Of a stretch of 64,000 nucleotides of DNA, positions 30,656 to 51,826 are shown one piece after another; within the stretch, counting starts at the first letter, position 1; the number at the start of each line of letters is the position of its first letter. Made by a program: the position numbers and the translations under genes. A model generated the notes under the pieces. That model was not told the DNA's origin. It searched no databases and worked only from the letters and a program-made list of their open reading frames with translations. Source of the DNA: Minisyncoccota bacterium (GTDB lineage Bacteria > Patescibacteriota > Minisyncoccia > Phycocordibacterales > PALSA-1337); NCBI GenBank assembly GCA_041671485.1, contig JBAZBL010000002.1:9320-73319 (forward strand), given 5' to 3'.

Positions 30656-31300
30656 ATGATAATCACTTACCTAGGTGGAGAATTCGTAAAAGTACAATTT
30701 GGTGATACAACGATTGCACTCAATCCTATTTCCAAAGAGTCAAATCTAAAGACATCAAAGTTTGGTGCCAGCATCGTATTGTCTAGTATCAATCATCCAG
30801 ACACAAATGGTGTCGATCAAGTCACTTTTGGCGAGAAGAAACCATTTGTCATAAATGGCCCCGGAGAATATGAAGTCGGTGGTGTATTCGTAAAAGGCTT
30901 CAAATCATTATCAAATTTTGATTACGGAGGTCAGACCTCCGTAAGGATCAATACCATCTTTACTGTAACTTTAGAAGGCATGAATATATGTTATCTCGGA
31001 GCTATAAATCAGATAGAATTACCAATAGAGGCAGATGAAGCAATAGATGATGTTGATATATTATTTGTTCCAATAGGTGGTGATGGAGTATTGGATGCAG
31101 TAAAGGCTTATAAATTGGCTATAGAAATAGGTCCCAAAATAATCATACCAATACACTACGGTGATATTGGCAATCCCAATGCATTGAAGATATTCCTAAA
31201 AGAGGCTGGCGAAAATCCTAGTCCTATGTCAAAATTAACATTGAAGAAGAAAGATCTAGATGGTAAGGAGGCAGAGGTGGTCGTGCTTGAGAAGGAGTAA
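30656..31300 (+). CDS. MBL-fold metal-dependent hydrolase (UPF0173-like)
   Basis: IPIHYGD metal-binding motif and an N-terminal beta-lactamase-fold pattern. Contains a 21-nt palindrome (family B) at 30923-30943. Confidence 0.6.
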   Translation: MIITYLGGEFVKVQFGDTTIALNPISKESNLKTSKFGASIVLSSINHPDTNGVDQVTFGEKKPFVINGPGEYEVGGVFVKGFKSLSNFDYGGQTSVRINTIFTVTLEGMNICYLGAINQIELPIEADEAIDDVDILFVPIGGDGVLDAVKAYKLAIEIGPKIIIPIHYGDIGNPNALKIFLKEAGENPSPMSKLTLKKKDLDGKEAEVVVLEKE

Positions 31301-31339
31301 TGTGGATTCCCGCTTTCGCGGGAATGACACAAAAAACAA

Positions 31340-31639
31340 ATGAGCATACAATCATATATAGAAAATTTGCGTACGAAGCCCGAACATGTTCGCAGGAGGC
31401 ATGCATTCTGGTATTCTTTTGGTGTAACTTTTGTGATATTTGCATTCTGGATATCTTCTTGGACCACTTTAGGAAATACAACCAAGGGTGTTGTAACAAA
31501 AGCTGTAGACAAAGTAGAGACTCCTGCTCAATCTCTAATTGCAGGAGTAGGTTCATTTTTCGTAGATATAAAAGATATTGTCTTTGGTCCCAAAAAGATC
31601 ATCTATTCCGAGGTTGAGGCTGTTCCGGGGAATCGATAG
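31340..31639 (+). CDS. Small membrane protein (99 aa)
   Basis: ORF with one TM helix. A hairpin attcccgctttcgcgggaat precedes it. Confidence 0.3.
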   Translation: MSIQSYIENLRTKPEHVRRRHAFWYSFGVTFVIFAFWISSWTTLGNTTKGVVTKAVDKVETPAQSLIAGVGSFFVDIKDIVFGPKKIIYSEVEAVPGNR

Positions 31640-31673
31640 GGTACTAGTATACTTGCTATTTTAGATATATATA

Positions 31674-32825
31674 TTGTATACTATACCCATGAATTATAAT
31701 AGAATAATAAGCAAGGCTTTACTTGAAAATATAGGCAAAAAACCTATATTGGTACTTTATGGTGCGAGACAGGTCGGTAAAACAACATTGATAAAATCCA
31801 TTTTGGAAAAGTTTACAAAGACATTGTATTTACAAGGAGATGACCCGAAGGATGCTTTACTACTTGAACATAGATCAACAGATGAGCTTAGAGATCTCGT
31901 GTCAGGTTACGATCTCGTTGTTATTGATGAGGCTCAGAGAGTGAAAGATATCGGTACGACGCTCAAGTTGATCGCTGATAATGTAAAAGATGTGAGAGTC
32001 ATTGCATCAGGGTCGTCTGCATTTGAATTGGCTAATAGGTTGAGTGAGCCTCTGACAGGTAGAAATCGTAAATTTTATCTTTACCCACTGTCCATGTCGG
32101 AACTGATAGAGGCATACGGGAAAATAAATACGAGCAAAGAACTCGAGACATATATGTCCTTTGGCATGTATCCAAAGATCGTATCCGCAGAGTCTAGAGA
32201 GGAAAAAGCACTTCTAGTAAAAGAGTTGGCAGGGGATTATCTATTCAAGGACTTGTTCATGTTCGGAGACATTCGAAACTCATTTGCTTTTGAAAAACTC
32301 ATAAAACTCCTGGCACTTCGCATAGGTGGCGAGATTTCTTACTCAGAATTGGCAAAAGAAGTCGGAATAAGTAGAGATACGGTGTTGAATTATATCAAAT
32401 TACTTGAACAAGCGTTCATAATATTCCGATTGACACCTCTATACACCAATAAGTCCAAGGAGATAAACAAAAGCCACAAGATATATTTCTATGATGTTGG
32501 TATCAGAAATGCTCTCATCAATAATACCGATCCAATGGAATTGCGTCTAGATAAAGGTGCGATTTTTGAGAATTTCTTTATCGCAGAAAAAGTGAAAGAA
32601 AAAGAATATTCTGGTCGTACAAGTGAAATCCATTTCTGGAAGAGTCGCAGTGGAAGTGAGGTCGATTTTGTCGAAGTCTCTGGTGGTTCTATCAATGCTT
32701 TTGAATGTAAATGGAAGGAAGTGGTTAAGGCTCCGAAGACGTGGTTAGAAACATATCCAAAATCAAGCTTTGAATGTGTCACAACAGAAAATATACTCGA
32801 TTCATTTGCTGTCAAAACTTTATAA
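31674..32825 (+). CDS. AAA-family ATPase with DUF4143-like C-terminal domain
   Basis: Walker A GARQVGKTTL and Walker B DLVVIDEAQRV. Confidence 0.65.
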   Translation: MYTIPMNYNRIISKALLENIGKKPILVLYGARQVGKTTLIKSILEKFTKTLYLQGDDPKDALLLEHRSTDELRDLVSGYDLVVIDEAQRVKDIGTTLKLIADNVKDVRVIASGSSAFELANRLSEPLTGRNRKFYLYPLSMSELIEAYGKINTSKELETYMSFGMYPKIVSAESREEKALLVKELAGDYLFKDLFMFGDIRNSFAFEKLIKLLALRIGGEISYSELAKEVGISRDTVLNYIKLLEQAFIIFRLTPLYTNKSKEINKSHKIYFYDVGIRNALINNTDPMELRLDKGAIFENFFIAEKVKEKEYSGRTSEIHFWKSRSGSEVDFVEVSGGSINAFECKWKEVVKAPKTWLETYPKSSFECVTTENILDSFAVKTL

Positions 32826-32894
32826 AGTATAAGAGTCAAAACAGATATTTCCTTGATGACAAACACTCTTTTTCTTGCTAGAATGATATAGTAA

Positions 32895-32915
32895 TACCGA
32901 GATCGGATCTCGGTA
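32895..32915. repeat. Palindrome family A copy 2 (taCCGAGATCgGATCTCGGta)
   Basis: Perfect 10-nt arms. Sits 13 nt upstream of the gyrA start. Confidence 0.6.
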
Positions 32916-32927
32916 AAAGTATTAAAA

Positions 32928-35414
32928 ATGGCAAAAAAGAATGAAAATAATGAAATGAAGATAAGGCCGGTAAATACGGCCGGAGTTGTTTCGCGGTCTA
33001 TAACAACAGAGATGCGTGAGTCATTCCTCGACTATGCAATGTCAGTTATCACAGATAGGGCATTGCCAGATGTAAGAGATGGTTTGAAGCCAGTGCATCG
33101 TCGTATCTTATACGCAATGCATGAAAAAGGTTTGACGGCTTCGGTCAAATTTCGCAAATCTGCTGTCGTAGTCGGTGATGTACTCGGTAATTATCATCCT
33201 CATGGTGATGTAGCTGTTTATGATTCTTTGGTAAAGATGGCTCAAGACTTTACCATGCGATATCCTCTGGTACAAGGTCAAGGAAACTTTGGTACGGTAG
33301 ATGGCGACAATGCCGCTGCTATGCGTTATACAGAGTCCAGAATGTCCAAGATCGCAGCAGAACTCTTGCGAGATATAGATAAAGATACAGTTAACTTTCG
33401 TCCGAACTACGATGGTACCAAGAAAGAACCGATAGTCTTGCCAACTGCTGTACCAAACTTGCTCCTGAATGGAACGCTGGGCATAGCAGTCGGTATGGCA
33501 ACGAATATACCACCACACAATCTTCGTGAAGTTCTAGATGCAACTATGCATCTCGTAGAAGATTCGGGTGCAAGTACAGAAGATTTGCTCAAATTTATAA
33601 AGGGTCCTGATTTTCCTACAGGGGCCATCATGTATGGAGAAAAAGATATTCAACATGCATATTCTACTGGACGTGGTGGTATCGTTGTCCGTGGTGAAGC
33701 AGAGATAGTAGAAGACAAAAAAGGACAATTCCAGATCATCATAAGTTCTATCCCTTATAGAGTGAATAAATCATCACTTATTATGCGTATTGCTGATCTT
33801 GTCCGTGAAAAGTCTATAGAAGGTGTAAAAGCACTACGTGATGAATCTGATAAAGAATTGAGGATAGCGATAGACCTAAAACAAGGTTCATTCCCGGAAA
33901 AGATCTTGAATCAGCTTTACAAACATACACAACTCGAAGAGACATTTCATGTAAATATAGTTGCTCTAGTAGACGGTGTTCCTCACACTTTGGGCCTAAA
34001 GACAATATTAGAAGAATTTGTAGATCATAGGATAGAGGTTATACGTCGAAGAACAAAGTTTGACCTCAACAAAGCCGAAGAACGCGAGCATATACTTCTA
34101 GGCCTGAAAAAAGCACTCGATCATATAGATGAAATAATTACTCTTATACGTGCATCGAAAGATGTCCTAGAAGCTCATGCTGGCCTCATGAAGAAATTCA
34201 AGTTTAGTGATAGACAAGCAACAGCAATATTAGAAATGAAATTGCAAAGATTGGCAGGACTTGAGAGAAAGAAAGTTCTAGACGAATTGGAACAAGTACA
34301 AAAACTCATTATCGAACTCAAAAGTATTCTTGACAGTGATAAGAAAGTCCGTGGCATCATAAAGACAGAACTTTCAGATATTAGAGAAAAGTATGGTGAT
34401 GATAGGAGGACAAAACTGGTCAAACATGGTGTCAAAGAATTTAGTGCAGAAGACCTTATCGCTGATGAAGAATCTGTTTTGGTTTTGACAAAGGGTGGCT
34501 ATATAAAGAGAACTGATCCTTCGGAATATAGAAAACAAAAGAGGGGTGGTGTAGGTGTTATAGACCTAGATACAAAAGAAGAAGATTTCATAACTCATCT
34601 CGTATATGCAACAACTCACAATGATATTTTATTCTTTACCGACAAAGGCAAAGCTTATCAGATAAGGATGTTCGAAATACCAGAAGGCAAACGTGCCACA
34701 AAAGGCAAATCAATAATGAATTTTCTTTCTCTAGCAGATGGAGAAAGAGTGACTTCTATATTGCCTATGCCAAAAGACAAAAAAGTAGCAGAAGGTCTAT
34801 CACTCATGATGGTGACAAAGAATGGCACAGGCAAAAAGAGCTCGGCAAAATATTTTCGAGATGTACGAAGGTCAGGACTCATCGCTATCACTCTAGATGA
34901 AAAAGACGAATTGATCCAAGCATCATTTGTCACAAAGAGTGATGATATAGTCCTAGCTACAAAACAAGGTCAGTCAATACGATTCAAAGAAAGCGATGTT
35001 CGTGAAATGGGTAGAAATGCTTCTGGAGTGAGAGTTATCAAGCTCGATAAATCTGGCAAATCTGAAAGTGATGAAGTAATTTCTGCAGATATCGTTTCCA
35101 AGGATGCAAAAGATCCAGCATTGTTTGTCATGAGTGCAAATGGTTATGGCAAGAAGACAGAACTTTCTGAATACAAAACACAAAAGCGTGGTGGTTCTGG
35201 CATACTCACCATGAAAGTCACAACAAAGACTGGTCCACTAATATCTGCAAAAGCAATTGTAGAAGGAGATGAAGAGATAGTTGCTATGTCGAAGAAAAGC
35301 CAAGTAATAAGAGTTGATATCAAAGAAATTCCAACTCTAAGTAGAGCTACACAAGGAGTCCGTGTTATGAAGCTTCGAGAAGGGGATACTTTGGCGAGTT
35401 TGATTTGTTTGTAA
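32928..35414 (+). CDS. gyrA: DNA gyrase subunit A
   Basis: Active-site region AAMRYTE, QRR region, and C-terminal beta-pinwheel repeats. 828 aa. Confidence 0.9.
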
Positions 35415-35439
35415 ATTATTATTGAGCTATAATTAGCAT

Positions 35440-35958
35440 ATGTTTTCTGACCCTACTCAAAATATAGGAAAGTTGGGACTAATACATGGAATGAAAGTAG
35501 TGGATCTTGGTGCAGGATCTGGTTTTTATACATTGGAAGCTGCAAGAAGAGTTGGAGCTGACGGAAGAGTATATGCAGTAGATGTACAAAAGAATTTGCT
35601 TGAACGCATAAGGACAAATGGAGCGCAAGAGGGACTCCGAAATATCGAAGTTGTTTGGGGCAATGCAGAGAAGATAGGCGGAACAAAGTTGCGTGAATCT
35701 ATAGCAGACATGGTTATTGCTTCAAATGTATTGTTTCAGATAGAAAAGCCAGATGAATTTGCTCTGGAGACAAAAAGATTATTGAAGCAAGGAGGCAAAG
35801 TATTGATAATAGATTGGAGTGAATTGAGCCCTATGGGACCACAAAATATTTTTACAGCCAATAAAGCACAAATGTTATTTGAGAAATCTGGATTCAAACT
35901 AGAGCAATCTTTCTCTGCTGGTGACCATCATTATGGGCTAATATTTATAAGACCATGA
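35440..35958 (+). CDS. Class I SAM-dependent methyltransferase
   Basis: Motif I VVDLGAGSGFYT. Confidence 0.6.
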   Translation: MFSDPTQNIGKLGLIHGMKVVDLGAGSGFYTLEAARRVGADGRVYAVDVQKNLLERIRTNGAQEGLRNIEVVWGNAEKIGGTKLRESIADMVIASNVLFQIEKPDEFALETKRLLKQGGKVLIIDWSELSPMGPQNIFTANKAQMLFEKSGFKLEQSFSAGDHHYGLIFIRP

Positions 35959-37250
35959 GTAAATTCCAAATAATAGTATTGGGAGTATTTGTTCTGGCTA
36001 TAATTGTCGGAGTAGCTACTTTTGCTACATACAAAGGTAGAGGAGGATCTAGTACACAATTACCACCTATCACAATCTGGGGTACATTTCCTGCAGAAAC
36101 TTTCAATAGTTATATATCCAAGATCAATCAAACTTTTTCTTTGCCATTAAGTATTTCTTATACAGAGATAAATCCAAATTCTTTTTCCAAACAATTTATC
36201 GCTGCTCTAGCTAGAGGGACTGGACCAGACGCCATATTGATATCGGCTGATATGATATTGCCACATTTGGATAAAATAACTCCTATACCATATGAAGCAT
36301 TACCACAGAGAACATTTATGGATTCTTATATAAATGAAGCACAGATATATGTAGGAGATGGTGGTATCCTAGCAATTCCTTTTGTAGTAGATCCATTACT
36401 TATGTATTGGAATAAAGACATGTTTGCTTCCGCCAATATAGCAACATATCCAAAATATTGGGATGATTTTACTGAATTGAATAAAAAGCTAACAGTCAAA
36501 GACAATAATGGAAATATAAGAAAGTCTGCTATTGCAATGGGAGACTTTGTAAATATAGCAAATGCAAGAGAGATCCTAGGAACACTCATACTTCAATTGG
36601 GGAATCCAGTTACAGTGAAAAATCAAGATGGATATATTTCAAGTACTATCAATACTTCTAATTCGACGAATCCAATCTCTGCTGTCCAATACTTTACTCA
36701 ATTTGTAAATCCAAATAGTTCAAATTATTCTTGGAATAGAGGAATGCAAAATTCCAAAACTGCTTTCTTATCTGGTACACTCGCTACATATTTTGGCTTT
36801 GCATCTGAACTCAAAGATATTCGTTCCAAGAATTCAAATCTCAATTTTGATGTTGCAGTCTTGCCACAGATGAAAGTTGGTGGTATGAAAGCTAGTTATG
36901 GCAAACTATACGGCTTCTCTGTAGTAAAGGCCTCAACAAATCAAAATGCTGCATATCAAACTTTTACCATGATAACAAATCCAAATAGTTTGAGAGTTTT
37001 GTCGGAAATGACATATTTGCCATCCGTTAGTATCGATCTTATTGCCCAAGGTTCAAAAGATCCATATATAACAGTATTCAATGGCGTTGCACTTATCGCC
37101 AAGACTTGGCTTGATGCAGATCCCATACAATCCAATAGGATATTTGGCAATATGGTAGATGCTATAACTAGTGGAGCGAAGAATATTTCGGAAGCCATAA
37201 ATGATACTGGAGACCAGTATGATGTATTGTTGTATCAAGCGACACAATAA
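35955..37250 (+). CDS. Extracellular solute-binding protein (ABC transporter SBP-like)
   Basis: N-terminal TM/signal anchor and periplasmic SBP-like composition. Family-level call only. Confidence 0.4.
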   Translation: MSKFQIIVLGVFVLAIIVGVATFATYKGRGGSSTQLPPITIWGTFPAETFNSYISKINQTFSLPLSISYTEINPNSFSKQFIAALARGTGPDAILISADMILPHLDKITPIPYEALPQRTFMDSYINEAQIYVGDGGILAIPFVVDPLLMYWNKDMFASANIATYPKYWDDFTELNKKLTVKDNNGNIRKSAIAMGDFVNIANAREILGTLILQLGNPVTVKNQDGYISSTINTSNSTNPISAVQYFTQFVNPNSSNYSWNRGMQNSKTAFLSGTLATYFGFASELKDIRSKNSNLNFDVAVLPQMKVGGMKASYGKLYGFSVVKASTNQNAAYQTFTMITNPNSLRVLSEMTYLPSVSIDLIAQGSKDPYITVFNGVALIAKTWLDADPIQSNRIFGNMVDAITSGAKNISEAINDTGDQYDVLLYQATQ

Positions 37251-37304
37251 TAGATTACAAATGTTCCGCCTTCGCCAAGGCTTCGGTGGACAAGCAAAAT
37301 CCAG

Positions 37305-37766
37305 ATGACAAATCAATTTCAAAATCCAAAGTATCTAATTATTATTGTTCTTTTGGTCATGGTATTGACTCCGATGCTAGTCAATGCAGCCAATCCTATA
37401 ACAGATGTATTCAATAGTAATTTCAAACTTTCTGTTTGCGATGGCCCTGCCAAGAATCCAAATGCAAATGCAACGAACTATCCCAATGGTTATGTAGCAT
37501 GCGACTTCAATGGTCTCATGTTACAAGCACAGCATCTTATTAATGTTTTTATAATATTTGGTGTTTTGGCGGCGATAGTAAGTTTTAGTTATGCTGGGTA
37601 TCTATATATTACTGGTGTAGAGAAAAATATAAGTCATGCAAGAGAGATCTTCCGTAAAACTGGCATAGGTCTTATAATGATGTTGACTGCATGGTTTGTT
37701 GTTTATCAGATACTGGACTGGCTAGTCGCAGATCCGGGGGTAAAGACACTTTTGGGGACACCATAA
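37305..37766 (+). CDS. Small secreted 2-TM protein, paralog 1 (VirB2/TrbC-pilin-like topology)
   Basis: Signal peptide plus two hydrophobic helices. First of six tandem paralogs. Confidence 0.5.
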   Translation: MTNQFQNPKYLIIIVLLVMVLTPMLVNAANPITDVFNSNFKLSVCDGPAKNPNANATNYPNGYVACDFNGLMLQAQHLINVFIIFGVLAAIVSFSYAGYLYITGVEKNISHAREIFRKTGIGLIMMLTAWFVVYQILDWLVADPGVKTLLGTP

Positions 37767-39951: not shown

Positions 39952-40344
39952 TTACTGGGTCCAAATCTTTACGACTAAAGGACCGTTCAACAGATTTATC
40001 TTTTCTGCGAGCATCTGAAATCTTTTGATGCCAGCGGTGTTGAAGTGTTTCCCAGGTTCTATGGAATGTCTCTCAGATGGATGGTCGAGGTCAATGACTC
40101 TGATTTCCTCTGCCCATCCCCTAACGATTTCAAAGAACCAATCTTGATTTGTCCCAACATGGAATACCTGAGAAGGATTTGCAGTTAGGGTAATAACTGC
40201 AGAATTTCCATTAACACCAGTTTGTGTATTGGATGAACTTTGATCGCGATTGCTGTAAACACGCCATCCCCAACCAGCTATTGCGACTACGGCCGCAATC
40301 AGTATGATTGTCGTTGCGATTTTCCAACCTTGTTTGGTGTCCAT
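39952..40344 (-). CDS. Membrane-anchored hypothetical protein (possible NfeD-like partner of the SPFH protein)
   Basis: N-terminal TM helix. Located immediately downstream of the SPFH gene on the same strand. Confidence 0.4.
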   Translation of the reverse strand: MDTKQGWKIATTIILIAAVVAIAGWGWRVYSNRDQSSSNTQTGVNGNSAVITLTANPSQVFHVGTNQDWFFEIVRGWAEEIRVIDLDHPSERHSIEPGKHFNTAGIKRFQMLAEKINLLNGPLVVKIWTQ

Positions 40345-41367
40345 TTACTTTCCTCCTTTCTTTTCTCCACCCTTTCCACCAAATTTGATGTCGGGGTTTA
40401 CAAGATTTATGTTTTGGCCACTACCGCCACTCTCGATACGTGCAACCATATTGTCTCTTACGAGACGTTGGACACGGATAGTTTCGAGACATTCAGTAAG
40501 ACCAGGAATAGTCTTTGCTTGAACCAGAGCTCTCATTTGAGCTAGGAATTGATCTTCTGAAAGATTGGTCGGTAAGTATTGTCGTGCCAGTGCCACTTGC
40601 AGTTCTTGGGCTGCAATTCGCATTGTCTGGTACTCCATCCGTTCTGCCTCACGTTGGAATTTCTCTCTCTCGACTTGTCTCATGTCATCATGGATATCTT
40701 TGTCGAGAGTAAAGTTGACTCTGACTTTGATCAGTTCAATTCCAAATGCTTGACGCTGAAACAGATTGTTTTTGATCTTTGCATGCAGTAGATTTGCAAT
40801 CTTATTGCCTTCTCTGCTGATAGCAAGGACATCCATTTTTTGTTCTGGATCCATCACAATCTCCTGTACTTCTTGAAATACTGGATCTGCTAGTTGGGTA
40901 AATACCTGTTCTATGTCATTGCCTGCCTGAACAAAGTCTTCTAGGTCAGCAATATCTGGACAAGCAGTTACCGAGACTTTTCCTGATATCGGAACTTTAT
41001 TCCATGAGATAATAGTCATAGGAAAGTCGCGATCCTTATTGTCCATGGCGATCTTGATGCTTCCTAGTTTGAATGGGAAGTAGTCGGCAAGTATCGTAGT
41101 ACCTCCAACGACCACACATTGCCCGTAGATCTTGATCGGTGCGTCCCAGAGAGTGAGCAAGCCCGCTTCTCGAGGTTTTGATGGCGAATGTTTGGTAAGA
41201 CCAAATCCAAATGCAAATGCACCAATTGCTGTGATTAAAATCCCGACCAACCCTATCACGAATGACAGAATTAATCCGATAATGATGAAGCTACCAACGA
41301 TGATTGCTATCAATATCGTAACTGGATTTCCGAATGGAACTAACTTTGGAGCAACTCTTTCTTCCAT
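40345..41367 (-). CDS. SPFH/Band-7 (stomatin/prohibitin/flotillin-like) domain membrane protein
   Basis: N-terminal TM segments followed by an SPFH-like domain and a coiled-coil tail. Confidence 0.65.
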   Translation of the reverse strand: MEERVAPKLVPFGNPVTILIAIIVGSFIIIGLILSFVIGLVGILITAIGAFAFGFGLTKHSPSKPREAGLLTLWDAPIKIYGQCVVVGGTTILADYFPFKLGSIKIAMDNKDRDFPMTIISWNKVPISGKVSVTACPDIADLEDFVQAGNDIEQVFTQLADPVFQEVQEIVMDPEQKMDVLAISREGNKIANLLHAKIKNNLFQRQAFGIELIKVRVNFTLDKDIHDDMRQVEREKFQREAERMEYQTMRIAAQELQVALARQYLPTNLSEDQFLAQMRALVQAKTIPGLTECLETIRVQRLVRDNMVARIESGGSGQNINLVNPDIKFGGKGGEKKGGK

Positions 41368-41506
41368 ATTTCCTTTCTAACCTCCCACAGTAGGGAAGTA
41401 TTGTTTCTTTTGTTGTTGTCAACGCAATACTCACAAGAGTACTACTAACTAAATTCCTATAAATGGTAGCATTTAAAGGATACTTTGTCAAGATTAGGAA
41501 GTCATA

Positions 41507-41531
41507 CGGATGTTTTCATACGGAGGTCTGA
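41507..41531. repeat. Palindrome family B copy (cataCGGAGGTCtGACCTCCGtatg)
   Basis: Perfect 12-nt arms. Related copies at 30923-30943, 50293-50311, and 50978-50996. Confidence 0.6.
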
Positions 41532-41544
41532 CCTCCGTATGTCC

Positions 41545-41588
41545 GTAGGTGTATAAAAAAGAGCGCGACCACATGTATTGCTACACAT
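41545..41588 (-). terminator. Rho-independent terminator for the 41618-43765 gene
   Basis: On the minus strand, gagcgcgaacatgtgtagcaatacatgtggtcgcgctc is followed by TTTTTT. Confidence 0.55.
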
Positions 41589-41617
41589 GTTCGCGCTCCG
41601 TGAATCTGGAAACAGTT

Positions 41618-43765
41618 CTACCTCATTCGGTAGAATGTGAACTCGAGGCTTGTTTCCTGAATGCCTACGAGTCGCAGTTTCCACTCATGTTGCTGGAGTG
41701 GATCTGCCGCAACTTTGACCTGACCGGAATGTTTGGTGGACAGCTTTCCGTCTATTACACATTCGATCTGATCACTGTTTGCTGGAGTGTAACAGGACAT
41801 GTTCCAGCCATCTGGAATAATGACCTGAAGCAACTCTCCAGCCTTGATCCATCTTGAATCGGTGAAGCTCTTGCAACAGTTATTAGCTGGCACACAGAGC
41901 CGTCCGTCGAGGATTTGTGTCGGAGGTAGTTCCCACCAATTGGGAACCTTAACCTCGACAGGCTTCTCCTGTGGCACTGATGCCGTCCGAGGAGAAGTCG
42001 CCGTGACGTCTGTTGGCTTTGCCGTCGTTGGACAGCAACCGCCTATAACGACATTGCTTTTGCCAACAGCATTGCCGTTGCCGATCACAATGTTGATGAC
42101 ATTATTGTCACCAACACCGTCACGAGTTACCCTTTGTAAGAGGGCGTTCGTCAGGTCGGACACGTTGGTCACGACTGGTGGCACAATTACCGACCGCTGA
42201 CCCAGTCCATCCACCGACTTTTGTAGTCCTTGGATGGCTGACAGGAACGGAGTCGTGTCAGTAACCGGCGGAGTTGTCGCTGTTGGCACTGTGGACTTTT
42301 TGAAGAGCACGGCCTGCCACACAAACCACACCGCTCCGATGATCATGAGGACGACCAGGAGTGGCAACCACTGCAAGTCGCGATCATACCAGGACCCCTT
42401 CTTTGCAGGAGGAGTTGGTGGCACCACGGGCGGAGGTGTCGGAGTGACCAACTTGCCACGAAGTTCATCAAGTTCCTTTCGGAGTTTGGTTACTTCATCA
42501 CTTGTTGTCACCACTGGTGCTGGCGGAGTCTGTGCCACTTTCGTGGCAGTTCCTACAGCCAACTCACGAATGAGATCGATCTGGCTCTGAAGCGCAGAGA
42601 TCTCATCTTTCGCAACTTTCAGTTCCTGTTGTGCCAGAGCCGAATGGTCATCGAATGATCCGGCCGGGAGTTTCTCCTCGGCGGGTTTCGATGGCTCTGC
42701 TGTTGCTGACCCAACCTTTTCCTCGGCAGGCTTCGGAGCCAGCGTCGGAGGAGGCGGGACCACTTTCGGTTCCTCGACCACGGGGGTCGGAGGTGGAGCC
42801 GGAGGAACGGCATGACCGACAGGTGGTGTTGTCACTGGTGCTGGTGTGTCAATGACCGCGGGGGTCGGAGCTGGTTTTTCCTTCGCCATTTCGGTGGCGA
42901 GGTTGGCGCAGGCGACACTGTGGTGTTGCTCCAGCTCGTCGATGATCTTTGTAAGCTCGTCCCATCCTCCTTGGAACTTGCTATACAGAGATTTGAGTTG
43001 GATGACTTGTCTCCTCATTTGGTTCAATGCGAGTCCCATGTTTCTCAACATGGAAGTGTCTGGAGTGATTTGTTTGGCCTCGACTCCCACAAGGTCGTTC
43101 TTGATCCTCTCCAATCGCCGGACCATCGTCACATACCCAGGCGGGACCCTCTCCTTCTTTTCTGACCCATCCGCTTTTGGCGTTGGGGGCAGAGTCGGAG
43201 GAGGAGTGATCACTTTTGGTTCCTCGGCCATGGTGGCCGTGGGAACTGGAGGAGTCACCACAGCAGGCGGTGTTGCCACTGCCGGTGTCTCGGTCGCAGG
43301 GGTCGGAGGAAGTGGAAGCTTAATCGCAAGTGCAGATAACTTTCCGTTTTCTTTGCACGAGAGCTTTTCCTTCCACGGTTCACTTCGATCGAGGTTAGGT
43401 GCCATGAGAGCACATACCTGAAGACCATAGAAGATCGTATCGTTTGGATGTCCGGGAGCCCAACTGAGACCCTCGTTGATATCCATGATGAGCCGATCAT
43501 TTGAAAGTATCGGTTCAAGCGTTCTCACGTTTGTTACGATACTTTCTTTGTCATAGTCAATCACGACGATGACAAATGAAGACTCACCAGTCTTCGGCAT
43601 GATCGTGAGCGTATTACCACTCAGTTCACATGTCGGGGCAAGAGCCCGTTTTGTTTTCTTAGCCATTTTCTGTTTTCTCCGTTTGTTGCGACCCCTTTTA
43701 TAGGGCCTTTGTTTTGCGAGAATCCATTGAAGGATCCTTGCGGTTTTTGTCTTTTTGATTGTCAA
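41618..43765 (-). CDS. Large Pro/Thr-rich repeat membrane protein with coiled-coil segments and a Cys-rich C-terminal domain
   Basis: 715-aa ORF (the start may be an internal Met at 43666). One TM helix (LPLLVVLMIIGAVWFVWQAVLF). Two copies of a ~150-aa repeat (EEPKV.TPPPTL...). About 55% GC in a ~35% GC genome. Confidence 0.5.
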   Translation of the reverse strand: MTIKKTKTARILQWILAKQRPYKRGRNKRRKQKMAKKTKRALAPTCELSGNTLTIMPKTGESSFVIVVIDYDKESIVTNVRTLEPILSNDRLIMDINEGLSWAPGHPNDTIFYGLQVCALMAPNLDRSEPWKEKLSCKENGKLSALAIKLPLPPTPATETPAVATPPAVVTPPVPTATMAEEPKVITPPPTLPPTPKADGSEKKERVPPGYVTMVRRLERIKNDLVGVEAKQITPDTSMLRNMGLALNQMRRQVIQLKSLYSKFQGGWDELTKIIDELEQHHSVACANLATEMAKEKPAPTPAVIDTPAPVTTPPVGHAVPPAPPPTPVVEEPKVVPPPPTLAPKPAEEKVGSATAEPSKPAEEKLPAGSFDDHSALAQQELKVAKDEISALQSQIDLIRELAVGTATKVAQTPPAPVVTTSDEVTKLRKELDELRGKLVTPTPPPVVPPTPPAKKGSWYDRDLQWLPLLVVLMIIGAVWFVWQAVLFKKSTVPTATTPPVTDTTPFLSAIQGLQKSVDGLGQRSVIVPPVVTNVSDLTNALLQRVTRDGVGDNNVINIVIGNGNAVGKSNVVIGGCCPTTAKPTDVTATSPRTASVPQEKPVEVKVPNWWELPPTQILDGRLCVPANNCCKSFTDSRWIKAGELLQVIIPDGWNMSCYTPANSDQIECVIDGKLSTKHSGQVKVAADPLQQHEWKLRLVGIQETSLEFTFYRMR

Positions 43766-43915
43766 AATTCACTACCTATACATTATACTCTGTTTTACGA
43801 AAATGTCAAGTATTTTATTGGTTTCTACGCAGGTCTACCCTGCGTAAATCCCAAAAATGATATCCACACAATATTTCAATTAGTTTTCTCTAATAGTGTT
43901 ATAATTACTGCATAA

Positions 43916-44188
43916 ATGGAAAAAAATGTAAAAATGGTATTACTTGTATTGATAATTATCCTTTCATGTGTATTTATCTTCTTCTATTCCTTTCAATCAA
44001 AATCTTCGCTACCATCTCAATCACCTCAACCCAATAAAGAAAAGACAGAAGAGCAGATTATGCAGGTTTTTACCGACTCTATTGCTCCAACGACTGCAAC
44101 AACCTCATTAGACATACAGGAGTCAAAGGAGCTTATAGATTCTATTGCACCACGAGATAATAAAATAATTAAAACTATTAATAATTAA
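43916..44188 (+). CDS. Small secreted protein (90 aa)
   Basis: N-terminal hydrophobic helix. ORF only. Confidence 0.3.
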   Translation: MEKNVKMVLLVLIIILSCVFIFFYSFQSKSSLPSQSPQPNKEKTEEQIMQVFTDSIAPTTATTSLDIQESKELIDSIAPRDNKIIKTINN

Positions 44189-45108: not shown

Positions 45109-45265
45109 TGGATTACTAACATTACAAAAAATGGTTTTAAGATTAATTGGCGTACACCATCTTTCGATAGAGATACACAAGGAGAGAATGGAGTAATGTG
45201 GATAGCAACATCTCCATAAATATTATTAAGTTTTATAAGGACAATTCTTATGGAAGGATAAAATA

Positions 45266-46486: not shown

Positions 46487-46500
46487 AGTTATTTATGTAT

Positions 46501-46540
46501 AAAAAAAGTGAGGCCGAGCGATTGCATCGCCGGCCTCTTG
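46501..46540 (-). terminator. Rho-independent terminator for the 46561-47550 gene (hairpin shared with the convergent + gene)
   Basis: gaggccg-agcgattgcatcgc-cggcctc hairpin with a T-run on the minus strand. Confidence 0.5.
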
Positions 46541-46560
46541 TTGTCTCGAAATGATACGTC

Positions 46561-47550
46561 TCAATACGGCGACACATTGGTCGTCACCGTACGGAAAAAC
46601 ATTTGATTTGTTTTCCCAATAACGAAGGACCGTGAAGCCCCACTGGGGAAGTAATGTGACAATGGCGAAACAATGTTCACCTCTCCAACATTCGTCCAGC
46701 TCTTGAGATTCTGTGACTTTTGTAGGAAGTACGCTCTACCAGAGTCTCCACCTCTCACTGTTACGGTAACGGAACTCCCAGAGGAAGCAATGCCAGTTCT
46801 CATAGGAGTTTCGGGAAGCAGTTTCCCGTCTCCATTGAAGCTTTGGAAGCCAGCACTAGAGAAGATAGACACCTTGAGCTGGTACGTACCAGTCGCAATT
46901 GACGAATCTGTGATTACATCAACAGGGAGGTAGATGAAACCGTCAGAATGGAGTATGTCCGTGGAAGGATCCAGTCTCCGATCATCCACCTCAAATGGAA
47001 ATGGATCTCCCCAGTATCCGATCTCCATCCTTACCCAAGAAGTTCCTGGGATGTACATGGGCAGATCGCTGGCCATGGTTGTCTTGAACCATGACAAGTC
47101 CGGGACAGAGTACACACCACCTACCTTGTTTGGGGTGATGTAGATGTAGGGGGTTGCGAATGAGGCTTGGGCAAGTTGCCAATTTGCTGCCATACGACAT
47201 TGTACATACACTTTAATCCCCATATCCTTGTTTATGATCGGATTTGCATTGGCCAATAAATTGCTAAGGATGTTAGACAACTGAGTGGCAATGATTTGAT
47301 CCATTTGCACCTTGTTTGTCATGGGCGTAGAAGGATACATCCCACTTGTCATGTATCCTTTCCAACTACCATTGGTATTGAAATAGTACGTCCAGATTCC
47401 AATTACATACACATTTGACACCGCGTACTGTTCCACTTTCGCCATATTCCCAAAGGGGAGCGAAGGAACTTCACCCACTGCATGTTGTGCAATGAGTGTA
47501 TTCGTGGCAATCAGGAAGACCGCCACGATCAAACTGCTGATCTTTTTCAT
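46561..47550 (-). CDS. Secreted hypothetical protein (higher GC)
   Basis: Signal peptide MKKISSLIVAVFLIATNTLIA. ORF only. Confidence 0.4.
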   Translation of the reverse strand: MKKISSLIVAVFLIATNTLIAQHAVGEVPSLPFGNMAKVEQYAVSNVYVIGIWTYYFNTNGSWKGYMTSGMYPSTPMTNKVQMDQIIATQLSNILSNLLANANPIINKDMGIKVYVQCRMAANWQLAQASFATPYIYITPNKVGGVYSVPDLSWFKTTMASDLPMYIPGTSWVRMEIGYWGDPFPFEVDDRRLDPSTDILHSDGFIYLPVDVITDSSIATGTYQLKVSIFSSAGFQSFNGDGKLLPETPMRTGIASSGSSVTVTVRGGDSGRAYFLQKSQNLKSWTNVGEVNIVSPLSHYFPSGASRSFVIGKTNQMFFRTVTTNVSPY

Positions 47551-47770
47551 GACGATTCTTTCTGATCTACCAATACTCCAACACACGTCAGGGTAATAGC
47601 AGACCTTTTGTTGCGCCTAGGTTTTACCCTTGGCTTTGTTTATCTGTGAAATTATTAGAATGCTGTACTTCGTTATCATTTCGATGTCAACGAACGAGCA
47701 GTCTAGAGTATATATAGCATGTTTTGGAGGGGAAGTAAAGGGGGTAAGAAGTACATTCAATCTTTTATTT

Positions 47771-48436
47771 TTATGATATAAACAATGACGCATCAGCAGA
47801 TGCAAGTTTTGAAGCGCTAGTTTCAGGATGATTATGTAAATATGCTGCAACAAGATCATATCCTAATGTATACCCTGTCCAACGCGGAATGATATCTGGC
47901 TTTGAACCGAAGAACCAGAGATCGTTATCATATGTTGGCTTTTTCCATTCCTCCGAAGCCTTTTTAAAAAATATTTTCTTCTGTTCAGGAGTTAATGCAC
48001 AAGAATATAATGAAGGTTTACTTCTTCCAGTCACTTCTTGAGCAAAATGATCGGCGAGGCCTTCGAAAACCATAGCTTCAAGTAATGTGTCACCTTCAAC
48101 TTGTTTTTGCCAACGAATAGTGTGATGTAATTCATGTGCAAGTGTAAAAAATAGCTCATGTTTAAGGGAATCCTTAAACTTTGGATGGCGCGGATCAAGC
48201 GAGATAAAGATGGTGTGGGCATTTGGTGCAAACCCTCCAATACCGCCAATCTCATCTTCTTTAAATGTCGCTACTGGGTTATCGTAAAAAACTATATCCA
48301 CATCTTTTATCGGCAAGAATTTCTTAACTGAAGCGATAGTGTCTTCAGCAATAGATTTTATCTCCTTAGAATATGGTCTGATATCCTTTGAAGCGGACAG
48401 AATGTGGATGTTTACGGACATGTTAGCATTATACAA
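47771..48436 (-). CDS. Predicted Zn-dependent protease (DUF2268-like, HEXXH)
   Basis: LAHELHHTIRW zincin motif. Confidence 0.5.
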   Translation of the reverse strand: MYNANMSVNIHILSASKDIRPYSKEIKSIAEDTIASVKKFLPIKDVDIVFYDNPVATFKEDEIGGIGGFAPNAHTIFISLDPRHPKFKDSLKHELFFTLAHELHHTIRWQKQVEGDTLLEAMVFEGLADHFAQEVTGRSKPSLYSCALTPEQKKIFFKKASEEWKKPTYDNDLWFFGSKPDIIPRWTGYTLGYDLVAAYLHNHPETSASKLASADASLFIS

Positions 48437-48657
48437 TATTATTTAGAAATAAAAAAATTCGCGATAGTCATCTGGTGATAACGAAAGAGGATTACTGTAA
48501 ATATATTGATGACTTTTATTCAGTTCACGAAAAAGAGATGAAGAAAATCTTAAATGAAACTATTAAATGTTTTGATGATGTAAAAGATATCTTGTTTTCT
48601 GAGTTGTTTAAATATTTCAGTCATGATTATAGTAAGGAAGATTACAAATGCTATTTA

Positions 48658-49173
48658 TCAATTTTTGGCTTGTAAACTTTTCTCGACAATTTTCTTATAT
48701 TCTGCAAAACTCTCCATACTGTATTCTGCGCGTCTTTTTTCTAGATCTTCCGGTTGCTCAATATCGATATATTTTATGATACCATCTTTGTCAATATTAT
48801 ATTGAGTACCATATAGTTGAGGTAACTTTTGAATGACCCTAGCTTTATCTATCATGTAAGCAATATCTCTTTTTTGTATTGAAATAGGATCTGCATCCTG
48901 CAAATTCTTAATTGATTTGTTTAGAAGATCAACATCTCCAGAATGTAACACTACTAGTACAGCCCCCTTATAAGCTTTTTGTGAGGTTAGATTTATTGTT
49001 GGAAATCCGATTTCAGTAATAATATTTTTAACGATGCTGACATTCTTTTTATTTATTTCCATGAAATCAGATTCTGTAATTTTTCTAGTCTTAAAATCCT
49101 TTATTGCTTGTTGGTCTGTTTCCAGAATTGTTTCCAGCGTAATGGTATCCTTTTTGATTAAAGTTGAATCCAT
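48658..49173 (-). CDS. Hypothetical protein (171 aa)
   Basis: ORF only. Confidence 0.35.
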   Translation of the reverse strand: MDSTLIKKDTITLETILETDQQAIKDFKTRKITESDFMEINKKNVSIVKNIITEIGFPTINLTSQKAYKGAVLVVLHSGDVDLLNKSIKNLQDADPISIQKRDIAYMIDKARVIQKLPQLYGTQYNIDKDGIIKYIDIEQPEDLEKRRAEYSMESFAEYKKIVEKSLQAKN

Positions 49174-49197
49174 AGCAATACTATACTATATTATCAT

Positions 49198-49407
49198 ATG
49201 AAAAAGATTTCACTAAAAAGTCTAGTATGGAAAGAGGGAAAGTATTTTGTTTCCCATGCCCTTAACGTGGATGTTTCAAGTTTTGGAAAAACACGAGGTG
49301 AAGCTTTGAAGAATCTAGTTGAAGCAATTAAACTATATATGGAGGATCTTCCTAAATTCAAGATTAGGGAAGTCACACGGCCAGCCATTGTCAACAATGC
49401 TTTGTAA
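49198..49407 (+). CDS. HicB-like (UPF0150) small protein, orphan
   Basis: WKEGKYFVSHALNVDVSSFGKTRGEALKNLVEAIKLYMED follows the HicB N-domain pattern. No hicA partner lies adjacent. Confidence 0.4.
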   Translation: MKKISLKSLVWKEGKYFVSHALNVDVSSFGKTRGEALKNLVEAIKLYMEDLPKFKIREVTRPAIVNNAL

Positions 49408-49408
49408 T

Positions 49409-49441
49409 TAAAAACCGCCACTTCCTTTCGAAAGTGGCGGG
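49409..49441 (-). terminator. Rho-independent terminator for the 49461-50003 gene
   Basis: ccgccactt-cctttcga-aagtggcgg hairpin with a T-run on the minus strand. Confidence 0.5.
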
Positions 49442-49460
49442 CGAAACTGTTTGGTGGATC

Positions 49461-50003
49461 TTATCGGCGTCCACCACCGTGGCCACCACCACCATGGGTG
49501 CTGTACGACGGGTACACTGCTCCCGGAGGCGAGCTGTATTGATTCCCGTACCGAGTGTAAACACTCGGCCCCGGTTGCTGGTAAACAGCACCGGGCGGGT
49601 ATGAGATCTGGTCGGGGTACCTCACATACGACGATCCTCCGTTGTAGTATGTTGGGACGGAATTGTACGTTGGTGCGTATCCACCGGAGTACCCGACACT
49701 ACCGGATCCGGTCCAGTAATGAGTTTGCCCACTGCTATTCATCGGGGTGATGGAGACATTGTTCTCCGCCCCGACAGGGATCTGCGACCAGTACTTGCGG
49801 TTGTAGGACTGACTCCCAACGAGAGCCCACCCCTTCGAGTGGTCTTCATAGGTGGACAAGTCCACCGTGTTACCACAGGCGTCCTTGGTGATGTGATTGC
49901 GTTTGACCACATCGTTCTTCTGGTACGTTGCACAACCAGTGCCGACGACCGACACTGCGATGAGACCAACCGTCAGGACAACCAACGAAACTAAATTCTT
50001 CAT
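49461..50003 (-). CDS. Gly/Tyr/Pro-rich putative lipoprotein (higher GC)
   Basis: Signal peptide with lipobox-like VGTGC. The C-terminal half is low-complexity G/Y/P/S. Confidence 0.45.
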   Translation of the reverse strand: MKNLVSLVVLTVGLIAVSVVGTGCATYQKNDVVKRNHITKDACGNTVDLSTYEDHSKGWALVGSQSYNRKYWSQIPVGAENNVSITPMNSSGQTHYWTGSGSVGYSGGYAPTYNSVPTYYNGGSSYVRYPDQISYPPGAVYQQPGPSVYTRYGNQYSSPPGAVYPSYSTHGGGGHGGGRR

Positions 50004-50102
50004 AATTCAAAGTTCTATCTATCTGTAGTTTGTTTTCTTTTTTACCCAGAGACGTTCCAGGTAATTCCCTAGAAGTCTAGCATACTAGAGCTAAATTGTC
50101 AA

Positions 50103-50121
50103 GCGAGATCAGATCTCGGTA
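50103..50121. repeat. Palindrome family A copy 3 (gCGAGATCaGATCTCGgta)
   Basis: See 9012-9032. Confidence 0.55.
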
Positions 50122-50128
50122 AAAATGC

Positions 50129-50286
50129 GCATAGCTTGATGAGATATGCTCTTGAGCCGACACGCAATGCGATCTGAGCCATGAACAAATTGCTCGTATT
50201 TGCTGAATCCTTGTAAGCAAATACGATTGCAATTTGGAATGGCGACCTTGCGTGGAGGCGAGGGAGCATATCTCATCAAGCTATGC
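50129..50286. repeat. Long inverted-repeat / MITE-like element (~158 nt)
   Basis: Perfect 23-nt terminal inverted repeats (gcatagcttgatgagatatgctc at 50129-50151; its reverse complement at 50264-50286). Nested inner inverted repeat ttgctcgtatttgct / agcaaatacgattgcaa. Confidence 0.6.
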
Positions 50287-50475
50287 TGAGAATCGGAGGT
50301 GCGACCTCCGATATTGGCACTATCCCAGAGTTATCCACAGGTCGCCTTGTGGTGTGGATAGCGAGAAGTGTTGTAGAATAGCAGTAAGTGGGAAGAAGTG
50401 GGATAAGTAAAAAACGTACATATGTTCATCATTTGAATACGTCATACAAACTGCTTCAATACCCGCAAAATTTAT

Positions 50476-50919
50476 ATGCTCATTGGCGAATACAAGCACA
50501 CTATCGACGGCAAGAATCGCCTCTCCATACCTGTCAAATTTCGACAGGAAATGGGGAATAAGGTGATCATAACGAGCGGGCTCGATAACTGTCTCTTCAT
50601 CTTTACGATGATAGAGTGGGAAAGAGTCACAGCACGTTTGTCGGCTTCGGAAGCGTCAATGTTGCAGGCGGACAATCGAGGCTTCAACCGTTATCTCCTC
50701 GGAGGAGCGGTTGAAGTCGAGATTGATACAGTAGGTCGTATGCTCATACCACAATATTTGCGTGATAGGGGCAATCTAATAAAAAGTAAGGTTGTGATAG
50801 TAGGCGTGAGAGATCGTGCCGAAATATGGGATGAAGAAAATTGGGAAAAGTATAGGAGTGGGGTCGAACAAAATGTCGATGCATTGGCAGAGAAGCTGGG
50901 ACAGAGTAGTGAAAAGTAA
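50476..50919 (+). CDS. mraZ: Transcriptional regulator MraZ
   Basis: N-terminal GEYKHTIDGKNRLSIP and duplicated MraZ half-domains. First gene of the dcw cluster. Confidence 0.8.
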   Translation: MLIGEYKHTIDGKNRLSIPVKFRQEMGNKVIITSGLDNCLFIFTMIEWERVTARLSASEASMLQADNRGFNRYLLGGAVEVEIDTVGRMLIPQYLRDRGNLIKSKVVIVGVRDRAEIWDEENWEKYRSGVEQNVDALAEKLGQSSEK

Positions 50920-50923
50920 GAGT

Positions 50924-51826
50924 ATGGAAAGTATTCATAAAGCAGTTCTTTTACATGAAGTAGTAAGTGGACTAGTCACGAGGTCGGACCTCGTGGGTTG
51001 TGTGAATTATCTAGATTGCACTATAGGTGGTTGCGGGCATGCTCTCGCTATAGCCGAAGCACTAAAAGGCAATCTCAATATAATAGGTCTTGATCGTGAT
51101 CCGAGATCAATAGAGAGAGCAAAAGTCTTATTGAGTGGTAAAGCAGAGAAAGTAATATTGGAAAATGAAGACTTTCGCAATCTTGATAAGGTATTAGACA
51201 AAAATGAGATAAAAAATGTTGATCTTATTCTCATGGATCTAGGGCTATCTAGTGATCAGCTACAAGATTCTATGCGAGGCTTTTCATTCCAGGCAGATGA
51301 ACCACTACTTATGACTATGAATGATCCAACGAAACATTTATTCAATGCAGGAAGTATAGTCAACAATTGGAAGGAAGAAGATATTGCAAATGTAATATTT
51401 GCTTATGGAGAAGAGAGATTTGCAAGGAGGATAGCAAAGGGGATCGTAGAATATAGAGAGAAGAAAGAGATAGAAACTTCTGGAGAACTCGTAGAAATAA
51501 TAAAGATGAGAGTGCCAGCATTTTATAGGAGGGGGAAGATTCATCCGGCAACAAAGACTTTCCAAGCATTACGGATAGCAGTAAACGATGAATTGAATTC
51601 CTTGAAAGAAGGACTAGAGAAGAGTTATGAAAGACTAAATATAGGAGGCAGGATGGCAGTGATTTCATTTCATAGTTTGGAAGATAGAATAGTCAAAAAT
51701 TTTTATAAAGAAAAAGCAAATACAAAAGAATCTATTGTTACCAAGAAACCAGTCTGTGCGAGTTTGGAAGAAGTGAGAGATAACCCTAGGTCTAGAAGTG
51801 CAAAATTGAGAATTTTTCAAAAATGA
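50924..51826 (+). CDS. rsmH: 16S rRNA (cytosine1402-N4)-methyltransferase RsmH
   Basis: HKAVLLHEV N-terminus and the SAM-binding motif DCTIGGCGHA. Start taken at an internal Met of the listed ORF. Confidence 0.8.
   Translation: MESIHKAVLLHEVVSGLVTRSDLVGCVNYLDCTIGGCGHALAIAEALKGNLNIIGLDRDPRSIERAKVLLSGKAEKVILENEDFRNLDKVLDKNEIKNVDLILMDLGLSSDQLQDSMRGFSFQADEPLLMTMNDPTKHLFNAGSIVNNWKEEDIANVIFAYGEERFARRIAKGIVEYREKKEIETSGELVEIIKMRVPAFYRRGKIHPATKTFQALRIAVNDELNSLKEGLEKSYERLNIGGRMAVISFHSLEDRIVKNFYKEKANTKESIVTKKPVCASLEEVRDNPRSRSAKLRIFQK

Follow-up and report, generated by a model that had tools for sequence, protein, structure and literature searches.

Why do short, self-complementary sequences recur along a 64,000-nt stretch of a Minisyncoccota genome (contig JBAZBL010000002.1; the whole stretch is called the window here), between genes and, in two places, in frame inside them? 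The original prediction described four such sequences as a palindrome family, family B (GGAGGTC-N-GACCTCC), and offered two readings: insertions of a mini-element tolerated in protein loops, or sites of a DNA-binding or nicking protein. Comparison with other genomes and with metagenomes supports both, which would be two sides of one system. We consider it likely that the palindromes are repetitive extragenic palindromic (REP)-type elements dispersed by a Y1 transposase that resembles the REP-associated tyrosine transposases (RAYTs).

All four palindromes exist, but two coordinates were slightly off and only two copies fit GGAGGTC-N-GACCTCC literally (0.00 expected from dinucleotide shuffles). 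The first, TTACGGAGGTC-A-GACCTCCGTAA (30922-30944, 11-nt arms), lies in frame in the plus-strand open reading frame (ORF) of a metallo-beta-lactamase (MBL)-fold hydrolase (30656-31300), where it encodes YGGQTSV as predicted. The second, CATACGGAGGTC-T-GACCTCCGTATG (12-nt arms), is intergenic at 41517-41541, 10 nt above the position first given (41507-41531). It sits between a canonical minus-strand terminator (41555-41598) and the -35/-10 elements (41491-41463) of the next minus-strand gene, and partial arm duplications surround it (41503-41548; CTACGGA on one side, AAAACATCCGTATG on the other), neither of which occurs in the relative represented by loci L059 and L060. The other two are variants. 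ATCGGAGGT-GCG-ACCTCCGAT (50292-50312, 9-nt arms), upstream of the mraZ promoter region and beside a 158-nt inverted repeat, equals the family consensus except for one G.G mismatch next to the centre, hence its 3-nt loop. CACGAGGTC-G-GACCTCGTG (50977-50995) has the core CGAGGTC with compensated outer arms and is in frame in rsmH (50924-51826, plus strand), as had been read, encoding TRSDLV.

A second set, family A, has the consensus TACCGAGATC-N-GATCTCGGTA and differs from family B at two symmetric positions. Its best copy, TACCGAGATC-G-GATCTCGGTA (32895-32915), ends 13 nt 5' of the gyrA start codon (32928), just 3' of a promoter-like ATGACA-17-TAGAAT (32856-32884). A copy with one mismatch, TACCGAAATC-G-GATCTCGGTA, occupies the divergent thrS/cupin intergenic region (9012-9032), and a third, with degenerate outer arms (50102-50120) around the perfect core CGAGATC-A-GATCTCG (50104-50118), abuts a minus-strand TTGACA -35 box. 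Two of the window copies are in divergent intergenic regions. The three family-A and four family-B copies form one superfamily, GAGRTC-N-GAYCTC with at most one mismatch, found at 7 sites against 0.43 expected. The window contains 9 perfect palindromes of any kind (arms of at least 9, loop of at most 3) where shuffles give 1.2, and the excess is far beyond chance. A promoter-like stretch, CTTGCTA...TATAGT, precedes both best family-A copies (9000-9011 and 32872-32894); because they have this upstream context in common, the family-A repeat unit may exceed the palindrome. L059 has a family-A half-site, GATCTCGG, directly next to a TTGACA -35 box, an arrangement like that of the full copy at 50102 in the window.

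Alignment with orthologs indicates that the residues encoded by the in-gene copies are recent and lineage-specific and lie in permissive, indel-prone loops, and are not conserved ancestral sequence. Most of the 120 best homologues of the MBL hydrolase have 210 aa and read ...YD--GE-KRINT at this place; the window protein reads FDYGGQTSVRINT and is 4 residues longer. Only this protein and its 97% identical relative carry the motif; independent indels occur here in other homologues. AlphaFold (mean pLDDT 80) models the palindrome residues as the tip of a long beta-hairpin (strands 77-90 and 93-106, turn at 91-92). The RsmH site falls in the hypervariable loop that joins helix 1 to the S-adenosylmethionine-binding strand; this loop is bounded by VLLHEV..GL and YLDGT and exceeds its counterpart in the T. 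maritima structure 1M6Y by 4 residues. In L053, whose RsmH is 90% identical, the loop has no palindrome. At the same position L055 has CTGAGGTC-G-GACCTCAG and L054 has TCCAAGGTC-G-GACCTTGGA twice, each time in a different reading frame, all with the core of the window copy, and L057 and L058 carry other GC-rich hairpin inserts. The inserts of L057 and L058, which are other Paceibacteria, are long and imperfect and span 30-70 codons (L058 1560-1680, L057 1555-1760). Judging from these alignments, palindromic DNA seems to land in this RsmH loop quite generally. The window RsmH and MraZ had no identical record in an exact-protein look-up, and that of the MBL protein gave a 1.8-kb contig only. In-frame palindromes inside genes had been called unusual; precedents for them exist among REPs and among the Rickettsia palindromic elements (RPEs) (PMC3733652).

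Close relatives differ in which copies they hold. L050, which matches window 14.1-31.6 kb with about 90% identity, retains the MBL copy except for one mismatch (GGAGATC/GACCTCC) and has two extra family-B copies, one directly after the MBL stop codon and one after the next gene. L059 and L060 keep the 41517 copy at the orthologous site with one mismatch, next to a flanking protein that is only 65% identical, and the 50292 variant is identical in L053. The cleanest filled-versus-empty comparison in these alignments is window 43842-43861, an empty site, where L059/L060 have a net insertion of about 20 nt. It equals one (T)CGGAGGTGCGACCTCCGA copy, given also as CGGAGGTGCGACCTCCG, and represents a second copy of the 50292-type variant.

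Several further differences between relatives were seen. The single mismatch in L050 (10272) and L059 (about 2330), relative to the window copies at 30922 and 41517, falls at the same palindrome position (GGAGGTC versus GGAGATC); this position also splits sub-families, and the change makes a GATC site. The window has a unit of another palindrome family, ATTCCCGC-TTTC-GCGGGAAT, at 31306-31325, and similar units occur in metagenome locus L069 (5139, 5182). That family gives rise to spurious peptide motifs (IPAFAGMT, SRESGNP, IPAKAGI) in overlapping ORFs. Next to the empty site, the hairpin TACGCAGG-N5-CCTGCGTA (window 43826-43846; L059 195-215) has the 5-nt loop GTAGA in gene orientation against TCTAC in the relative, the whole palindromic unit being flipped.

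The family extends well beyond these relatives. We searched one genome per species (185,579 species) with the strict pattern TACSGAGRTCNGAYCTCSGTA and obtained 53 sites on 49 stretches; chance would give about 9 hits, about 2 of them symmetric. All but 3 of the 49 stretches are labelled as Patescibacteria/candidate phyla radiation (CPR) or plain 'uncultured bacterium'. The labels include Paceibacterota, Parcubacteria, Nomura-, Kaiser-, Ryan-, Azam- and Giovannonibacteria; six stretches come from metagenome-assembled genomes (MAGs) with a Saccharibacteria label. The 21-mer is strongly over-represented in Patescibacteria and essentially absent elsewhere. The three hits outside the CPR (L015, L016, L048) were not accepted as true members, their number being the chance expectation for symmetric variants of the pattern. 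The Saccharibacteria labels were not taken at face value either: the RsmH of CAYHFU01 (L035/L057) is 73% identical to that of the window, which the names given to identical proteins assign to a Candidatus Paceibacterota MAG, and this label is probably wrong. The family may be confined to Paceibacteria. A scan of 2.9 million viral contigs for the 19-mer gave 0 matches and no sign of a phage-borne element.

The copies are uniform in their symmetry. The strict pattern allows 16 combinations at its four degenerate positions, and only the four symmetric ones were seen (53 of 53 sites), 43 sites being the consensus TACGGAGGTC-N-GACCTCCGTA. Further loci have the same core with other, yet complementary, outer arms, such as GGCAGAGGTC-T-GACCTCTGCC and CTACGAGGTC-C-GACCTCGTAG. 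By crude ORF calls, 24 copies lie between tandem, 6 between convergent and 5 between divergent genes, and many are at ORF edges. Several MAGs hold 4-15 strict copies each; the richest, CAYOYL01, has 15 in the parts fetched and 18 with a looser core. Extrapolated from 7 per 64 kb, a genome would have 50-90 superfamily copies if its size is about 0.8 Mb, which we assume.

The search for an associated enzyme led to this copy-richest MAG. Locus L031 encodes a 220-aa protein (3398-4060) that matches Pfam Y1_Tnp (PF01797) with 37.1 bits (cut-off 23); its best NCBIfam match is REP_Tyr_transpos (NF047646), the REP-associated tyrosine transposase, with 45.3 bits. An exact family-B palindrome lies 5 nt before its ATG and another is in frame within the gene (3563-3583, YGGRTSV). 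Two more exact copies lie just downstream, both in frame where the following gene encodes the N-terminal region of a type I dehydroquinase. The homologue in L019 has one copy about 40 nt upstream and another that fills the gap right after its stop codon, and the L024 homologue has two copies upstream. The enzyme that had been sought, an HUH/Y1 (IS200-like, RAYT-like) transposase, is accordingly found in three other MAGs, flanked in each by exactly the family-B palindrome. L018 encodes a diverged paralogue; it belongs to CAYOYL01, as L031 does, and the two are not recent duplicates since their proteins are just 30% identical.

The transposase alignment conserves YHxxNRG, LMPNHxHLL (the HUH motif), LFQGRY and YIHLNP. 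The single L031 sequence found no match in the PDB, and a four-sequence profile matches ISDra2 TnpA (2XM3, E = 3e-4) and E. coli TnpA-REP (4ER8, E = 1e-3). The tyrosine of YIHLNP is aligned with the last aligned residue of ISDra2 TnpA, 132, which we take to be the catalytic tyrosine.

The association of palindrome and enzyme also holds when the search starts from the protein, in metagenomes. A scan with the transposase alignment returned 573 relatives, the best 80 of which were kept (loci L063-L142), and palindromes were called strictly (perfect arms of at least 8, loop of at most 4). Among these best 80 of 573, a palindrome occurs within 250 nt upstream in 37 of 74 homologues and within 250 nt downstream in 41 of 78; the background of 0.23 palindromes per kb predicts about 0.06 per 250-nt flank. 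The same core stands on both sides in 24 of 72 homologues and inside the gene in 17, and in 16 of the 17 it is 124-201 nt from the start of the match. With relaxed criteria and counting L031, at least 19 lineages have an internal copy that is in frame, free of stop codons, about 10-30 codons before the HUH motif, and that changes in step with the flanking copies. Each enzyme has its own lineage-specific palindrome. The closest enzymes have similar ones (TACGAGGCT..., TACAAGGTC..., TACAAGGTT...) and distant enzymes unrelated ones, for example TTGAAGTC-G-GACTTCAA and ACAGGGTC-C-GACCCTGT. On this comparison, enzyme and repeat change together, as is known for REP/RAYT systems.

These results suggest how the system may work. 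The palindromes are short, GC-rich and self-complementary and would form hairpins in single-stranded DNA. A RAYT-like Y1 (HUH) transposase of the IS200/IS605 kind would probably recognize, nick and re-join them, leaving copies at new sites; action on single-stranded hairpins by the 'peel and paste' route is proposed by analogy with IS200/IS605 and TnpA-REP. The window would then hold non-autonomous copies only, with the enzyme gene elsewhere in the genome or perhaps lost. A copy that enters a permissive surface loop could persist as an in-frame insert of 6-8 residues, as in the MBL hydrolase and RsmH, because all frames of the consensus TACGGAGGTC-N-GACCTCCGTA are open except when N is T. Intergenic copies have stop codons, promoters and 5' leaders as neighbours, and the host may have co-opted some of them as RNA hairpins or regulatory sites. 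Possible candidates are the copy before the gyrA start, those at 41517 and upstream of mraZ, and the copies followed by T-tracts after genes. What the comparisons show is that the family is real and restricted to one lineage, that the in-gene copies are recent, that close relatives gain and lose copies, and that the palindromes are physically associated with Y1 transposases, each enzyme lineage with its own palindrome; we infer from this that the enzyme moves them.

The reference systems are the REP/BIME (bacterial interspersed mosaic element) sequences of E. coli with TnpA-REP (yafM), the REPINs of Pseudomonas, and the SMAG elements of Stenotrophomonas, a gammaproteobacterium ('REPtrons'). 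The palindromes described here resemble them in size (about 20-25 nt), GC-richness, palindromic form and, as far as crude ORF calls indicate, dispersal mainly between genes, in their frequent occurrence as close pairs, and in the Y1/HUH transposase gene flanked by cognate palindromes, each enzyme lineage with its own. Stenotrophomonas REP stems are perfectly complementary, like the palindromes here (PMC2817692); some REPs are in frame inside genes, and the unit ends can supply stop codons (PMC3733652). However, the GTAG/CGTC head is missing, TAC/GTA is instead part of the stem, and the unit is symmetric around one central base. The enzyme is only distantly related to known RAYTs, scoring below the NCBIfam RAYT cut-off and matching 4ER8 with a profile E of 1e-3. 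Copy numbers look modest. Furthermore, many of the enzyme genes have an in-frame cognate palindrome some 10-30 codons before the HUH motif, a feature that we did not find described in the RAYT literature searched.

Also comparable are the TIRYT genes, or 'TIRtrons', of Di Nocera et al. (2013), RAYT-like genes flanked by moderately repeated, GTAG-less sequences, some of them self-complementary (PMC3733652). The likeness lies in RAYT-like genes with head-less flanking repeats; TIRtrons differ in their hosts (Acidobacteria, Stenotrophomonas and others), their longer repeats and the lack of any reported internal in-frame copy. The REP/RAYT surveys consulted do not mention Patescibacteria (PMC5581495, PMC6006769), and a literature search for CPR together with palindromes, terminators or REP found only CRISPR-related or unrelated papers. 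Perfect-stem REPs, REPtrons, in-frame intragenic REPs and RAYT-like genes with head-less repeats are already known (PMC2817692, PMC3733652). The present case departs from these in its host lineage, as far as those surveys and searches reach, in the fully symmetric head-less unit, in the distant enzyme clade and in the recurrent in-frame cognate palindrome in the enzyme gene.

Two other systems are instructive. IS200/IS605 insertion sequences (IS608, ISDra2) have a transposase of the same superfamily (HUH plus tyrosine) and DNA hairpins flanking the gene, and because these two features are common to both, recognition of single-stranded DNA hairpins is suggested here as well. The ends of IS200/IS605 elements are imperfect, asymmetric hairpins with distinct left and right forms, and the whole insertion sequence is the mobile multi-copy unit. 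Here, in contrast, one perfect palindrome stands on both flanks, and what is dispersed is this short unit alone. The RPEs of Rickettsia are likewise palindromic repeats in a reduced, AT-rich genome, inserted in frame in coding genes where the protein surface permits it. With 100-150 bp, elements of the RPE-1 type are longer than the units here, which have 19-25 nt and an unrelated sequence; a candidate enzyme exists here, and we know of no dedicated transposase for RPEs.

Several points weigh against dispersal by such an enzyme. The evidence for mobility is comparative. No Y1 transposase gene was found by tblastn in the window or on its relatives' contigs, and a Pfam scan of 10 unassigned window ORFs, which recovered HATPase, DUF3800, KilA-N and Fic domains, found no transposase, HNH or GIY-YIG. 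The L031 enzyme stays under the NCBIfam RAYT cut-off (45.3 against 80 bits), and the unpaired GTAG/CGTC head of classical REPs is absent, the symmetric unit giving the same hairpin from both strands. Copy density is modest, with 7 per 64 kb in the window and 15-18 in the fetched parts of CAYOYL01. In rsmH, the difference from the closest relative (L053) is a same-length replacement that leaves the loop length unchanged, and no clean insertion. After the MBL gene one hairpin has been swapped for another, the window having ATTCCCGCTTTCGCGGGAAT (31306-31325) in place of the family-B copy of L050. The 41517 copy and the copy upstream of mraZ are conserved at orthologous sites, which fits a host function as well as a passive element. 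Simple transposition also leaves the copy-specific palindromic flanks, described below, unexplained.

Of the alternatives, RNA hairpins selected independently at each site, without any mobile origin, survive best, and even so we regard them as improbable. They could be intrinsic terminators, intercistronic mRNA stabilizers or 5' protective stem-loops. In many cases a copy begins within 0-8 nt of the preceding stop codon, with the next ribosome-binding site about 10 nt further on; 30% have a T-rich side against 16% at random; T-tracts follow some copies outside the window (L043, L013, L027), that of L043 after a tRNA gene; and at the junction of the MBL and 99-aa genes the window has a different hairpin in place of the family-B copy of L050. 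Selection for pairing alone would not, however, yield identical 21-mers in distant MAGs. None of the 53 sites has a G.T pair at the R/Y position, though the search pattern permitted it, and in imperfect copies A.C mismatches are as frequent as G.T, with no wobble enrichment (numbers are small, and copies were not oriented by transcription). No window copy combines a GC-rich stem-loop with the T-tract of an intrinsic terminator, and none was called a terminator in a terminator/promoter scan. An Rfam gathering scan of the whole window returned tRNA-Glu alone, and an E-value scan of 49990-50480 only noise. In-gene copies would be harmful if they acted as terminators. A purely RNA-level role is hard to reconcile with the 41517 copy in particular, because it lies downstream of the terminator at 41555-41598 and upstream of the next -35 box.

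The palindromes could also be operators through which a dimeric regulator conserved in Paceibacteria controls neighbouring promoters (gyrA, mraZ, a Band-7-like gene). Their dyad symmetry is perfect, and several occupy promoter-relevant positions: a -10 box immediately precedes the copy at 32895, with the gyrA ATG following after 13 nt, the copy at 50102 abuts a -35 box, and that at 41517, between a terminator and the next -35 box, is kept in a relative whose flanking protein is only 65% identical. Recent inserts within coding regions are difficult to accommodate, as is the fast turnover of copies between 90%-identical genomes. The roughly 40 bits of conserved sequence are far above what a regulator needs, and neither arm covariation nor copy-specific palindromic flanks are required by a protein site. 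Together with the tight association with transposase genes, including a copy within the gene, this makes operators quite unlikely as the origin of the family.

The symmetry of the flanks calls for another comparison. Palindromy extends outward by at least 1, 2 and 3 bp in 66%, 57% and 38% of copies, against 26%, 7% and 2% at random, and the sequence of the extension is specific to each copy; the next base pair outward is mostly complementary (T/A 17, A/T 10 and C/G 7 of 53). Template switching at quasi-palindromes during replication, a mutational by-product without a dedicated enzyme, would produce such flanks and the perfection of all copies. The same-length change in rsmH, the inverted loop at 43826-43846 and the partial arm duplications at 41503-41548 also point in this direction. 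It leaves unexplained why the same 21-mer stands at unrelated sites in many genomes, why every Y1 transposase lineage has a palindrome of its own both around and inside the gene, and how a new copy with the family consensus arose at a previously unrelated site (the L059 indel). As the sole cause it is very unlikely; in addition to transposition, however, it may well have perfected and lengthened the arms.

A last alternative is that the palindromes are inverted pairs of DNA uptake signals for natural competence. It would draw on general knowledge and on none of our data: CPR bacteria rely on nucleotides that they scavenge and have genes for competence machinery, and the inverted uptake sequences of Neisseria also act as terminators. 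We rejected it as hardly conceivable: half-sites are rare outside the palindromes (4 of the 5 ACGGAGGTC in the window fall within the two palindromes), the density of about 1 per 9 kb is far below that of known uptake sequences, and the association with transposases is left aside. Each of these explanations covers a part, and none accounts at once for 21-mers that are identical between genomes, in-frame copies of recent origin and the link to a transposase, for which REP-type dispersal by a RAYT-like enzyme remains our preferred reading.

The surroundings of the window copies have features of their own. The 158-nt inverted repeat (50129-50286) is rod-like and lies between the family-A copy at 50102-50120 and the family-B variant at 50292-50312. 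It folds far better than shuffles (z = -13), and the plus strand is about 13 kcal/mol more stable than the minus strand, which hints at G.U pairs in a plus-strand RNA. Rfam has no match for it, and L053 has kept its right half. The repeat could be a small RNA not described before or a further palindromic element. Upstream of mraZ (50325-50410), TTATCCACA, a perfect DnaA-box consensus (50331-50339), faces an inverted TGTGGATAG, followed by TGTAGAAT, and GTGGGA-AGAA-GTGGGA direct repeats (50388-50403) resemble MraZ-binding boxes. The block is conserved as a whole in three relatives (L053, L057 and L058), and L054 and L055 have parts of it. Two islands (24000-28000 and 40000-44000) have a G+C content of 0.44-0.51 against about 0.37. 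The second contains the rare Band-7-like gene, for which 5.8 billion proteins include only 4 homologues, and a gene for a Pro/Thr-rich protein of 715 aa; it adjoins a cluster of type IV secretion system (T4SS)-pilin-like genes (37.3-39.1 kb).

A more far-reaching reading of the enzyme genes can be formulated, which we consider unlikely. The RAYT-like transposases of Paceibacteria (CPR) would form a distinct clade whose gene must contain an in-frame palindrome of its own target type shortly before the HUH motif. The enzyme would bind or cut this hairpin in its own gene or mRNA, making it a feedback site. The dispersed palindromes would be a regular source of lineage-specific loop insertions in CPR proteins, such as the RsmH loop with its different palindromes at one position in different lineages, and the system, a domesticated generator of variation in protein loops and regulation, would be more than selfish DNA.

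If the palindromes are REP-type elements, the ultra-small, streamlined genomes of the CPR would maintain a REP/RAYT system, studied so far almost only in Proteobacteria. This would give a concrete mechanism for some of the short inserts and hypervariable loops of CPR proteins and account for the gain and loss of hairpins beside promoters and stop codons between close strains. The palindromes could be useful for typing strains and for spotting spurious ORFs, and some of the breaks between contigs in CPR assemblies may be due to them. The palindrome that recurs in frame within transposase genes, in step with the flanking copies, would be a testable handle on how RAYT-type enzymes are regulated.

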